Assembly: GCA_976226885.1 (NCBI GenBank)
Contig: OZ320314.1
Span: 111,662,001 to 111,726,000, forward strand
Source of the DNA: Iphione sp. A-MEVVRFRX5
Lineage: Eukaryota
Direction of reading: 5' to 3'
Length of the DNA: 64,000 nucleotides
Shown: positions 23,225 to 26,751 of the stretch, piece after piece
Layout: each line of letters opens with the position of its first letter
How positions within the stretch are numbered: the stretch's first letter is position 1
The notes under the pieces: generated by a model
Seen by the model: only the letters and a program-made list of their open reading frames with translations
Databases searched by the model: none
Told to the model about the DNA's origin: nothing
Translations under genes and position numbers: made by a program

Positions 23225-25815
23225 TCATACCACAAATGTCTCCTTGACATCTGCCACCACCTCCTCCCCCTCCTGGCAGTCAGCCCAGGAAGTAAACCAG
23301 CGGTACGCTCTTCCTCTCGTTAGGTTCCCCGGCCTGCGCACATGCCAGCCCATTAGGTCGCATGGGGGAGCCTCCCTCGATGGGCAGAACCAGAGGGTCT
23401 GCACCAGGTGGACTTTGATCTCGTTATGTCCAGCTACCTGTACCTCAGCTGTGCTCGCGGCGCTTACGATGCACCAACCCGCCAGTGGGGCTGACTGGCG
23501 GGCCACATGCAGGGTGGTTACCCAGTGGTAAAACACGTCTGGAATCCCTTCGTCCTCGGAAGCCGGTGGCGAGACATCCTCATACGACCATCGGTAGGCG
23601 TAATGCGGTCCCCCGGGCGCCGGGGGAGACGCTCGGGGGGCTGCCCACCGCTGCTCTGCCCTTACCCGTAGGCGCTGCCAGGTTGACTCTGGCCACTGGA
23701 GAGAGCGCGCCCCGTTCCTGCCGGCGTCCCAGCGGCGGGCGGGTATGGACGGGGGTGCCGGCCCCCCCGGGTGCTGGTGTCGGCTGGTCGGGGTCTCGCG
23801 GTTCGGCCGCAACTGGGGGCGATGGTGGATTCCCCACCGTATCCGGCCGTTCCTCCATGGGTGGTGTCGTCCCGGCCGCTCCTGCTGGGGGGGGTCGCCC
23901 CTATGAGGCTGAGAGTAGCCATCCCCATCACTGTCGGCTCATCACGGCCGCCCTGCAGAGGATCCGTTGCTGCCCCTGGGGGGCGTCCTCACGTGGATGC
24001 TCACGCGGTGGGTCGCCGGGCTGTCCCTCTGCCTCCTGGCCTGCATGGGTTGCCCGGTAATCCACTCCTGCATCTGCTGGCCCCTCCAACGGTCGGTGGG
24101 GGGCGGGGGCTTCCTCCGTGGGCGGGGACTGTGGGCCCGCTTCCTCACCCTCGTGTGGCGGGGTGGGTGCGGCCACTGGCTCTGAAGGTCCGCCCTGCCC
24201 TCCTGCTGTGTCCTCTGGTGGCTCCTCCGACCATTCCCCCGTGGTCTCTTGTGCCGAGGTATCCTCCAATGGGGGGACATCGGACCCTCGATGCTCCAAC
24301 ATAGAGTCGGCGGTTAGTGCGGCCAATTCCTCTTCCAGCGCTGTGGTAGTCAGCGGTGCCTCTCCGGACTTCGCCCCGGTGTCGGAGGGACCCGAGCTGT
24401 TGCCCTCCAACCACACCACTTCCCCCAGGGTGGCAGCCATGGCTTGCTGCAGGGCGTCGGGCCCTTCGGGGCGGGGCGAGGGCTGGGCCCTTTTCTGAGC
24501 CAGCTGAGGCGAGGTCTCTGGTGAGTCCTCCACCACCACCAGGGGGCCGCTGTTGTCCGCCCTTTCCCATCCGGGGCCCAGCCGGTATTCCAAGCGCACT
24601 TCCTCTTCTTCATCCGTGCGGCTCACTTTGGCGGTGGTGTGGCTGCGCCCTGGAAGGCCCCGTCGACCAGGCATCCGGGCACGGGCGGGACTGGTCCACC
24701 AACCCTTGCCGGGGGTACGGGGCTCGTCTTCCGACGAGGAAGTCAGCAGCTGACCGGACCCTGGCACCGGGGACAGCGGCAGGACGCCCTCCCGCAGGCG
24801 GATATGCCTCCCGGCATGGGAGACGGAGGCTCCGAGGCGTCCTCGTAGTCGGACCACAACGGTCGCTCCGGGGATGGCTCCTGTCATGCCGGTGGTGGTG
24901 GTGGTGGTGTTCCGGCGGAATCCCCCCGGAAAAGTTGCCGGCGATGGGGCTCTGGCGGGGCTCCTCCCAAGTCGATCCCCACAGGGGTGGGCACCAGGGG
25001 TGCAGTGCGCGCACATGACGAACTTGGGGTGCCTCGGGGCTTGGTTCGCTCGTAGGTCCAAGCGGGGGCCTCTCGGTGAGGAGGAGAGGACAACGAGCTC
25101 TCCATTGGCGTAGCCGTGGGGGACAGAGCCGATGCTCCCGAGTCCGCTGGCTCCGAGGGAGTGTGAGGGCCCCTCACGTCTGGGACTTCATCCACGAGAG
25201 GAGTGCCCGGATCCTGTGGCAGGTCGCCCTCCCGGGGCGGTGGGGGCGTCGTCGGAGCGGTGTCACCATCTCCCCGTGGTGGTGGCGGCTCGTCTCTGGC
25301 CGGGGTAGCAACTGGCCCGGGTACTGCAGGGCCAGTGCCTGGGGCGGCACCCACGGGTGGCCCGGCTGGGGGGAGGTTGTCCCCAGAGTCCTCCTCCGGT
25401 TCTCCGCACTCCCGGCGCTGACCTATCCAGGTCAGTAGGTCTCGCCGCCTCATCCGCTCGTCCTGGCATTTCCGGCGGTTGTACTCTGCTCGCCGTTCTG
25501 GTGGGCATGGCAGCACCACCCGGAATGTAGGGTTGTAGCCGGAGAATCGCAGTAACTCCACGCTCGTGGAGTGAGCCACTCGCTCTGATCCATGTACTTT
25601 CACAGCATGCCTCTTCCAGTCTGCTCTCCTCTTGAAGGCGGTTCCCTGGCACTTCGGGAAGGGGCACAGCCAGCCGAAGCCGGTCACCTGATGCGCATCC
25701 ACCACGTGCTGATTCATGCCTTCAAGCTCTAAAAGCCCCTACCACACACCTGGCAGGGGTAGGGGGGGCCATCGGGAGCATCTGAAGTACTGGGGGTTGG
25801 GTCGCGGTCAGCCAT
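23225..25815 (-). pseudogene. Accessory ORF3 of element D: two N-terminal C2H2 zinc fingers, a long P/E/G-rich region and an unknown C-terminal domain (about 860 codons, several disruptions)
   Basis: Stitched from ORFs 25729-26220, 24884-25717, 23928-25061 and 23225-23812: CQVCGRGF*SLKGMNQHVVDAH and CPFPKCQGTAFKRRADWKRHAVKVH. Confidence 0.7.
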
Positions 25816-26751
25816 GGCGTTGGGCAGCACCGTGCGTAGAACAGGCCTGCGTCGATTGTCACTACTGTGACCGAAGCTGCGCCGATTGTCACTGCGCCTA
25901 TCGCAGATGCGGCAATTGTCAGGACACCAAACCACGTTGTGTCCACCGAAGCTGCGCTGACTGTGGCTGTGTTGCTCGCGGTTGCACCGGGTCGTAGTGC
26001 ACGGAAGGTCAGCGCACCGTGCGTCTGTGGAGACAAAACAGGAGTCAGCGAGGGTTGTTTTCACCACAGGACAAAAGTAGCTCAGCCTCCCTACTGGCGA
26101 GCAACTGGCTTCAGCACGTTTATCCTTATGACCGTTGCCGCCCTTACATTCAACACATTCGAGGTCTGTTCCCACCATTACTGCAAGCACAATTGTGAAA
26201 GTTACTTGTGCAACAATCATTCAACGTTCCTACCCCTAAGCCATAACCGCAGGCACTCTCCCAGCCACCGCCTTCTCTGGTTGTGTGACTGTCGCACGTC
26301 CCAACCCCGCTACGACAAAGCTGGCCAACGCCAATGTTGCGGCCCCCATTATCGCTCATGAGCAGGCTGTGGGCCACACAGAATAAAGCGCCTACCTGGC
26401 TTGGAATGGACCGACAGGGGTTATCTGCAGTGCCCTCCCTACTAACGTTGCGGCGTGCTTTTCCTTAAGTCGTGGCTCCTTTTGTTGTGATGCTCGGATT
26501 CCGACTTGGTCAAACGCTCCAGAGGGGACAGCACAAGGTCTGCGGTAGAGAGATGCAACCGTGGGTGGCGCCACTCCATTTCCTGCAGCTTAGTTCAGCG
26601 GAACTCCGAACGGGGGCACCATGTGCTGGCATTGCACGCACTGACGCTGCTCGCAATGATGCAGCTTCATTCCCCGCTCCCTCACATGCACTGTCCTGTT
26701 GCGGCGAGTGCCACAGCACACTTACATTCCCTGCCGCGCCCTTTCCAGCAG

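Follow-up and report, generated by a model that had tools for sequence, protein, structure and literature searches.

A Ty3/Gypsy clade with a conserved C2H2 zinc-finger extension of Pol, a candidate element-encoded transcriptional regulator

Simple Gypsy elements are generally thought to depend on host transcription factors, and C2H2 zinc fingers are best known as tools of the host against retroelements. Complex retroviruses encode transactivators of their own, such as Tas of foamy virus and Tax of human T-cell leukemia virus (HTLV), which are made from spliced RNA and encoded at the 3' end in separate open reading frames (ORFs) after env. The long terminal repeat (LTR) retrotransposon Cer1 of C. 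elegans makes its CERV protein from spliced RNA and requires it for RNA export (PMC10309623), and the targets of the VANC proteins of plant transposons build up as tandem repeats within the element (PMC5735166). Extra domains in Gypsy elements have been reviewed (PMC9289625, PMC6431247). Here we analyze a minus-strand Ty3/Gypsy element in a stretch of 64,000 nucleotides from Iphione sp. A-MEVVRFRX5 (assembly GCA_976226885.1, contig OZ320314.1, positions 111,662,001 to 111,726,000), hereafter the window, and its relatives in the same genome. This young LTR retrotransposon clade keeps its own pair of C2H2 fingers under strong selection.

The original prediction, made from the window copy, had described a zinc-finger gene in the env position with its own splice acceptor. 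The region is indeed element-encoded and family-wide, and its acceptor and start codon are kept across families, but in intact copies it is an in-frame C-terminal extension of Pol and not a separate env-like ORF. With its last 800 bases as query, 42 DNA matches were obtained in the 1.18-Gb genome (G000; 61 candidates, 40 scored), and the C-terminal domain as query gave 150 scored protein matches among 1,441 candidates, with identity bands near 95, 79, 52, 42, and 37%; a second C-terminal-domain query gave further bands. With this number of matches in the same genome, the region is neither due to chance nor a one-off captured exon. The clade comprises at least five families that share 35-100% identity in the C-terminal domain. 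For comparison, we fetched all 39 other copies from the DNA search as an unselected set, 20 copies chosen for long open frames, and 20 upstream stretches. LTR pairs were found in 18 of 20 elements tested and were 98.5-100% identical. The clade therefore inserted recently, with the window copy as an older member. A single frame of 2,376-2,511 codons, running from the protease to the last residue before the polypurine tract, was present in 11 of the 39 unselected copies, so that the one open frame expected of the region exists in natural copies, fused to pol. The same fused frame was found in 16 of the 20 length-chosen copies, which belong to other families (2,366-2,716 aa). Of the 150 C-terminal-domain matches, 29 sit without interruption within frames of at least 2,300 aa, across families down to about 37% identity. 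In the intact layout, protease (PR), reverse transcriptase (RT), RNase H (RH), and integrase (IN) are followed by a linker of 220-580 aa, a methionine, two C2H2 fingers, a hairpin with an Arg-rich helix, 610-930 disordered residues, and a domain of 125 aa. The accessory region constitutes the final 860-1,200 residues of this Pol frame.

The window copy is broken, as had been recognized. In comparison to a natural intact relative, its accessory region contains one internal stop (24886) and five frame switches (near 25730, 24770, 23950, 23900, and 23635), and it terminates at a stop three codons short of the family end. Of the two finger patterns originally described, that of finger 2 is found in one frame, whereas that of finger 1 appears only across the frame switch near 25730. 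The linker is interrupted by frame switches near 26790 and 26150 and by stops at 26512 and 26467. The approximately 1 kb between integrase and the ATG is a decayed coding linker with 42-75% identity, tile by tile, to the linker of the relative L100, which could not be recognized from the broken copy by itself. Since this homology extends along the length of the linker, and since the pol frame of L031, a copy 91% identical to the window, is stop-free through its linker, the window lineage most likely once encoded the Pol-accessory fusion as well.

Selection was assessed by pairwise Nei-Gojobori counts of nonsynonymous relative to synonymous substitution rates (dN/dS) in 15 pairs of natural copies, which are not independent of each other. 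The RT-integrase part had values of 0.03-0.09 (0.38 in a single pair of very close copies). The fingers and the C-terminal domain each gave 0-0.23, and the disordered region gave 0.12-0.30. Purifying selection on the fingers and on the C-terminal domain is of about the same strength as that on pol, and the dN/dS comparison suggested with the original prediction thus spoke in its favor. The absence of a signal peptide and of a transmembrane segment, noted before for the window copy, was also seen in the intact relatives: none of the seven contains a hydrophobic segment (maximum 19-residue Kyte-Doolittle value 0.67-1.15), and the protein is therefore not an env.

The finger module was modeled with a predicted local distance difference test score (pLDDT) of 88 as two fingers, a hairpin, and a long helix, and the zinc ligands are conserved in the alignment. 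Finger 1 of L033 matches Pfam zf-C2H2_4 (E 7.5e-6) with 26.7 bits, below the cut-off of 27; Pfam gave no separate hit for finger 2. With the finger profile, matches to DNA-binding C2H2 proteins of solved structure were obtained; finger searches otherwise returned generic C2H2 proteins and two marginal viral-contig matches, and a fold search of the module gave no clear match. Finger 2 has the recognition pattern R-1/D3/R6 in six of seven representatives and finger 1 the pattern N3/R6 in five of seven, both being base-contacting patterns of Zif268-type fingers. The overall layout, with N-terminal fingers, a long Pro-rich and acidic disordered region, and no membrane segment, resembles that of a transcription factor. 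Within the otherwise variable disordered region, an RxLF motif (in six of seven representatives: L033, L100, L106, L110, L113, and L116) and many S/T-P sites are kept, a combination typical of docking to cyclin and cyclin-dependent kinase.

The model of the C-terminal domain folds at a pLDDT of 85. Homologues were found neither among 214 candidates nor in the Atlas nor in Pfam. A comparison with 1.84 billion representatives yielded seven weak matches, of which the four inspected were unrelated repeat proteins, and the PDB sequences gave a single match with an E of 0.6. The best Foldseek E values were 0.03 (PDB) and 0.006 (viral). The domain is thus a conserved fold without a family in Pfam or in the large protein collections searched. 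The profile and structure searches suggested with the original prediction pointed to no described family and to no more than a weak fold likeness.

In addition to the Pol fusion, a second, stand-alone product, which would come from a probably spliced RNA, is predicted from the sequence upstream of the fingers. A polypyrimidine-AG site lies 2-371 nt upstream of the methionine in each family examined, often with a CTGAC-type branch point. By a home-made score, this site is one of the top five of 420-527 AGs in 13 of 14 copies, with no ATG between site and methionine, and the acceptor of the window copy ranks first of its 460 AGs. This acceptor (TGTTTTGTCTCCACAG, 26040-26025), which is accompanied by a branch-point-like CGCTGAC at 26050-26044, the start codon in good context (acgccATGG, 25820-25812), and the ATG-free leader of 209 nt are all present as originally described. 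The 30-nt repeats of the leader exist as well, with TGACAAT occurring three times at 30-nt spacing, but they are imperfect, as Tandem Repeats Finder reports none of them even at score 30. The only donor candidate conserved in position is a weak site inside the primer-binding site (PBS). The shared phase of the acceptors (distance to the methionine 2 mod 3) was considered as a sign of an upstream coding exon and rejected, because common descent and the open frame give the same result; the acceptor of L141 is in another phase than the others. As a separate observation, a donor-like sequence lies on the antisense strand just past the predicted start site in the R region of the LTR in L100, L113, and L116 (sense ACTTACC, CCTTACC, and ATTACC).

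Our favored reading, with chances that we put at about even, is that the conserved two-finger C2H2 tail of Pol in this Gypsy clade serves the element as a sequence-specific activator of transcription or anti-silencer of its own, made both in Gag-Pol and from spliced RNA. Splicing to the acceptor before the fingers would yield a stand-alone nuclear protein of 860-1,200 aa, whereas the fused form would be packaged with Gag-Pol and could reach the new DNA copy attached to integrase or freed by the protease. The fingers would recognize short GC-rich words that recur in U3, in the linker, and in the 5' portion of gag, and the disordered region and the C-terminal domain would recruit host co-factors, so that the element would be switched on or silencing kept off. 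In favor of this reading are the fused frame and the selection on it, the open linker described below, the acceptor-like site and methionine ahead of the fingers, the base-contacting finger patterns, the layout of a transcription factor, the sister lineage in public data, and the density of GCA words in U3 and of CGCAG in the linker, for which the repeated VANC targets are a precedent (PMC5735166).

Several points weigh against this reading. The acceptor ranks depend on the home-made score and on copies that are related to each other, in L101 an ATG sits between acceptor and methionine, and a strong conserved splice donor was looked for in the elements and not found. The repeated words, namely GCA with a density of 92-164 per kb in U3 versus 36-43 in pol and CGCAG at about twice the synonymous-codon expectation in the linker of seven of eight copies (in several frames and on both strands), were chosen after looking and are inflated by tandem duplication, and hence are weak evidence. 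They do not fit L110, and the U3 of the L033 family is rich in TGCA and not in the GCG expected for finger 2. In the window's own and the two nearest families, the helix of finger 1 is acidic or neutral (E/E/G/E, A/D/A/Q) and is unlikely to bind DNA, which would leave one canonical finger and little specificity for an activator. Neither a catalytic nor a known activation domain was identified in the accessory protein, and the best structural match of the C-terminal domain, a phage tail-terminator/ferredoxin-like fold, is weak (Z 8.2, root-mean-square deviation 3.5 Å, 99 aligned residues, 7% identity). Finally, the fusion to integrase would be explained as well by a tethering role.

Such a role would make the tail a chromodomain-like integration-targeting module that tethers the pre-integration complex to chosen DNA or chromatin. 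The linker was in frame in 30 of 35 unselected copies and stop-free in 25 of 35, with 11 different lengths (four of the 39 copies lacked an anchor and were left out). Ten linkers, chosen as open, had no stops in the pol frame versus 6-21 in each other sense frame, and dN/dS of the linker was 0.39-0.87 within families. As its residues are near neutral yet its frame is open, selection acts on read-through rather than on the linker sequence. Avoidance of nonsense-mediated decay was judged to be a weak explanation of the open linker, since the 3' tail that follows the gag stop is far longer in any case. A linker whose frame is kept in every family examined while its residues count for little is what would be expected of a flexible tether on integrase. 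Chromodomain targeting by integrase is a known precedent (PMC9289625), and a second RT clade, described below, also carries C2H2 fingers in frame after integrase. However, sequence-specific insertion targeting was not seen, as the insertion sites have a loose 4-bp preference only and the recovered 3' flanks (56 of 59) share no sequence, one pair excepted. Moreover, tethering does not need the conserved acceptor and start codon of the accessory region. We regard a tether as unlikely.

The same acceptor leads to another alternative, in which the spliced product would be a Rev- or CERV-like nuclear factor that binds and exports unspliced genomic RNA, with the gag and linker repeats serving as RNA signals. 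If an element has a strong internal acceptor, it needs a way to export RNA that retains the intron, a problem that Cer1 solves with CERV (PMC10309623). The predicted intron contains the repeated words, and next to the fingers there is an Arg-rich helix on their C-terminal side. Yet the CGCAG words occur on both strands, the GCA-type words are densest in U3 and thus upstream of the transcript start, and the helix pattern of finger 2 is a DNA-reading one, all of which makes RNA export a quite improbable function.

Even less likely is an action on host genes or other copies, either by repressing the own family and thereby limiting copy number or by interfering with a host defense factor via the short motifs and the C-terminal domain. 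In its favor, divergence is much faster in the accessory region than in pol: between L033 and L100, identity is 98% in RT-IN (dS 0.2), against 77% in the C-terminal domain and 55% in the disordered region, and dS is >1 or saturated in these two parts as well as in the linker and the fingers. The RxLF motif, presumably of the cyclin-docking type, would also fit. On the other hand, the pairwise counts gave no sign of positive selection, with dN/dS of the accessory region well below 1, and the protein has no known partner. The contrast between L033 and L100 suggests recombination that swapped a 3' module of accessory region and LTR onto a shared pol. A captured host exon or passenger ORF without a role for the element can practically be dismissed, for although the fingers resemble ordinary host C2H2 fingers, the region has been kept in at least five diverged families and a sister lineage, all 59 fetched C-terminal-domain matches come from element-like loci (56 with an LTR end downstream), and purifying selection about as strong as on pol contradicts it.

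The activator or anti-silencer reading can also be viewed in the light of relatives from public databases, of which the nearest single-element RT-IN regions are about 45-50% identical. None of the best 120 public Pol relatives has a C2H2 label among its precomputed Pfam annotations, but inspection showed fingers after integrase in some of them. Among 138 proteins, P0116 matches the finger profile with an E of 3.8e-12, and weaker matches come from P0098 and P0167. In each of these three proteins, Pol is followed by a linker, a finger pair, and a disordered tail that is long, and in P0116 and P0167 a methionine stands shortly before the fingers. The profile of the C-terminal domain gave no significant match to their tails, and homology as judged by these profiles is confined to the fingers. 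For a tree of RT sequences, 69 public proteins that each contain a single RT motif and a single integrase motif, others being left out, were combined with seven from G000 (76 rows; no outgroup root). In this tree, these lineages are sister to the G000 families with a support of 95/97. As the public sister lineages share the design, it is older than the G000 genome. A separate RT clade (P0094, P0118, P0121, P0126, P0130, P0132; L140 and L141) has short C2H2 tails of 1-4 fingers, as judged by pattern, in frame after integrase, with a Phe-rich peptide and a methionine preceding the fingers. L141, which is decayed, has its best acceptor (of 176 AGs) 4 nt ahead of the methionine; L140 is without it. 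A C2H2 tail after integrase may thus have arisen twice. In its widest form, our proposal would be that an animal Gypsy lineage carries its own C2H2 transcription factor, packed in the particle via Gag-Pol so that a new copy arrives with its activator, and also made from spliced RNA to drive a family-specific feedback loop on repeated LTR, gag, and linker sites, with C2H2 tails having arisen in at least two Gypsy lineages; this we consider conceivable but doubtful. As diverged families with different finger-1 helices and LTR words coexist in one genome, the matching of protein and target is directly testable.

The features of the window element are compiled in Table 1. It is a Ty3/Gypsy LTR retrotransposon, as shown by its LTRs with TG...CA ends, its PBS, polypurine tract, and pol order, and a 4-bp target-site duplication (CATT) that flanks it at both ends. 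The PBS is of the tRNA-Leu type, and by PBS and RNase H motifs the clade is probably Gmr1/Osvaldo-like; the RT tree contains no named reference elements. Pfam detected protease, RT, RNase H, integrase, and the p58 C-terminal domain in order on the window fragments, in several broken frames, and the order PR-RT-RH-IN is also found in the intact L033, whose gag contains a CCHC knuckle. The start codon of gag is an ATG in U5 in 11 of 11 relatives examined (L120-L131, L134), and the frame continues through the PBS with MS[YL]LR[SN]G[RK] (33278-33229 in the window), while the window copy stops after seven codons. The LRSG motif at the Gag start may resemble nucleosome acidic-patch-binding peptides such as that of LANA from Kaposi's sarcoma-associated herpesvirus. 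The pol gene of the window element is split by an insertion with an RT ORF of the long interspersed nuclear element type (approximately 29452-31099; plus-strand ORF 29427-30443). A second, more distant decayed Gypsy element lies at 59980-64000 on the minus strand; its integrase is about 50% identical, its LTR is preceded by a long GC-rich tail, and a weak finger-like remnant (E 0.042) is seen at 62998-62930. The host background consists of segmental repeats at 10500-22050, 33900-46500, and 52300-59600 of the window (two direct, with spacings of about 9.6 and 23.9 kb, and one inverted), each of which holds Gypsy insertions and AT-rich exons of a Calx-beta-like repeat gene.

Table 1. Features of the Ty3/Gypsy element in the window (window coordinates).
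Feature	Position	Strand	Remarks
5' LTR, 327 nt, TG...CA	33248..33574	-	95.4% identity with 3' LTR
TATA in 5' LTR	33383-33373	-	motif
AATAAA in 5' LTR	33308	-	motif
gag start codon inside U5 of 5' LTR	33276..33278	-	relatives read MS[YL]LR[SN]G through PBS
PBS TGGTGGCAGCGGTGGGAT	33229..33246	-	
gag, broken in window copy	31815..33278	-	
Candidate -1 slippery site GGGAAAC	31795-31789	-	
pol PR-RT-RH-IN-p58C, broken	26794..31885	-	Pfam; tblastn
Linker, open in-frame continuation of pol in intact relatives	25816..26793	-	
Predicted branch point, polypyrimidine tract, AG acceptor	26025..26050	-	
ATG-free leader, 209 nt, imperfect 30-nt repeats (3' part of linker)	25816..26024	-	
Accessory protein region (860-1,200 aa in intact relatives)	23225..25815	-	one internal stop, five frame switches
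C2H2 finger 1 (C-x2-C-x12-H-x4-H)	25691..25755	-	split by frame switch near 25730
C2H2 finger 2 (C-x4-C-x13-H-x4-H)	25592..25666	-	single frame; nearly invariant F-x-R-R-x-D-W-K-R-H helix
F-x-G-x-N-P hairpin and long Arg-rich helix packed behind finger 2	25418..25591	-	alignment, model pLDDT 88, profile match
Pro/Ser/Thr/acidic disordered region; short conserved motifs RTYxR, RxLF, LDxxLGxGW, SPxxR[VI]	23594..25417	-	
C-terminal folded alpha/beta domain, about 125 aa	23222..23593	-	alignment; pLDDT 85
Polypurine tract	23043..23054	-	
3' LTR, 327 nt; U3 rich in repeated TGCA/GCA words	22716..23042	-	95.4% identity with 5' LTR

With Ty3/Gypsy elements (Metaviridae) in general, the clade shares the LTRs, PBS, polypurine tract, 4-bp target-site duplication, gag with a CCHC knuckle, and PR-RT-RH-IN with the p58 C-terminal domain, but its Pol runs 1,100-1,500 aa beyond integrase into a C2H2 protein that has its own predicted acceptor and methionine. 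The env ORF of errantiviruses likewise lies between integrase and polypurine tract with an acceptor in front, whereas the region described here is without a signal peptide or transmembrane segment and is in frame with pol. Chromoviruses also carry an extra nuclear reader domain in frame with integrase; here, C2H2 fingers, a long disordered region, and a new domain take the place of a chromodomain, which was not among the Pfam hits at E<=1 on the full L033 frame, separate-expression signals are present, and no insertion targeting was seen. No description of C2H2 fingers after a Gypsy integrase was found in the accessible parts of the literature searched (e.g. PMC2836005, PMC6431247, PMC6238403, PMC8220671, PMC12801592, PMC2774666, bioRxiv 2026.08.24.746577), a scope that lies outside Repbase, Dfam, GyDB, most subscription journals, and supplements, so that a prior database note is possible.

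CERV is likewise an accessory protein that an LTR retrotransposon of an animal encodes, and its RNA is spliced where splicing is predicted here, but it shares exons with gag and exports RNA, and the accessible text reports neither a C2H2 pair nor a Pol fusion for it (PMC10309623). VANC of the Arabidopsis VANDAL transposons is also an element-encoded protein with conserved domains and variable repeat-rich regions, from elements in which short words are repeated; it differs in coming from plant DNA transposons, in its domains DUF1985 and DUF287, and in its binding and demethylation, which have been shown (PMC5735166). As in Tas and Tax, a 3'-encoded regulator is proposed to act on the LTR, from a spliced RNA that is predicted in our case, but no sequence similarity to these transactivators was found and the accessory region is an extension of Pol. 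If our reading is true, an element-encoded regulator that can exist both as an integrase extension and as a stand-alone protein would let this Gypsy clade act in the manner of complex retroviruses, and would parallel, in an animal, the anti-silencing by plant VANC.

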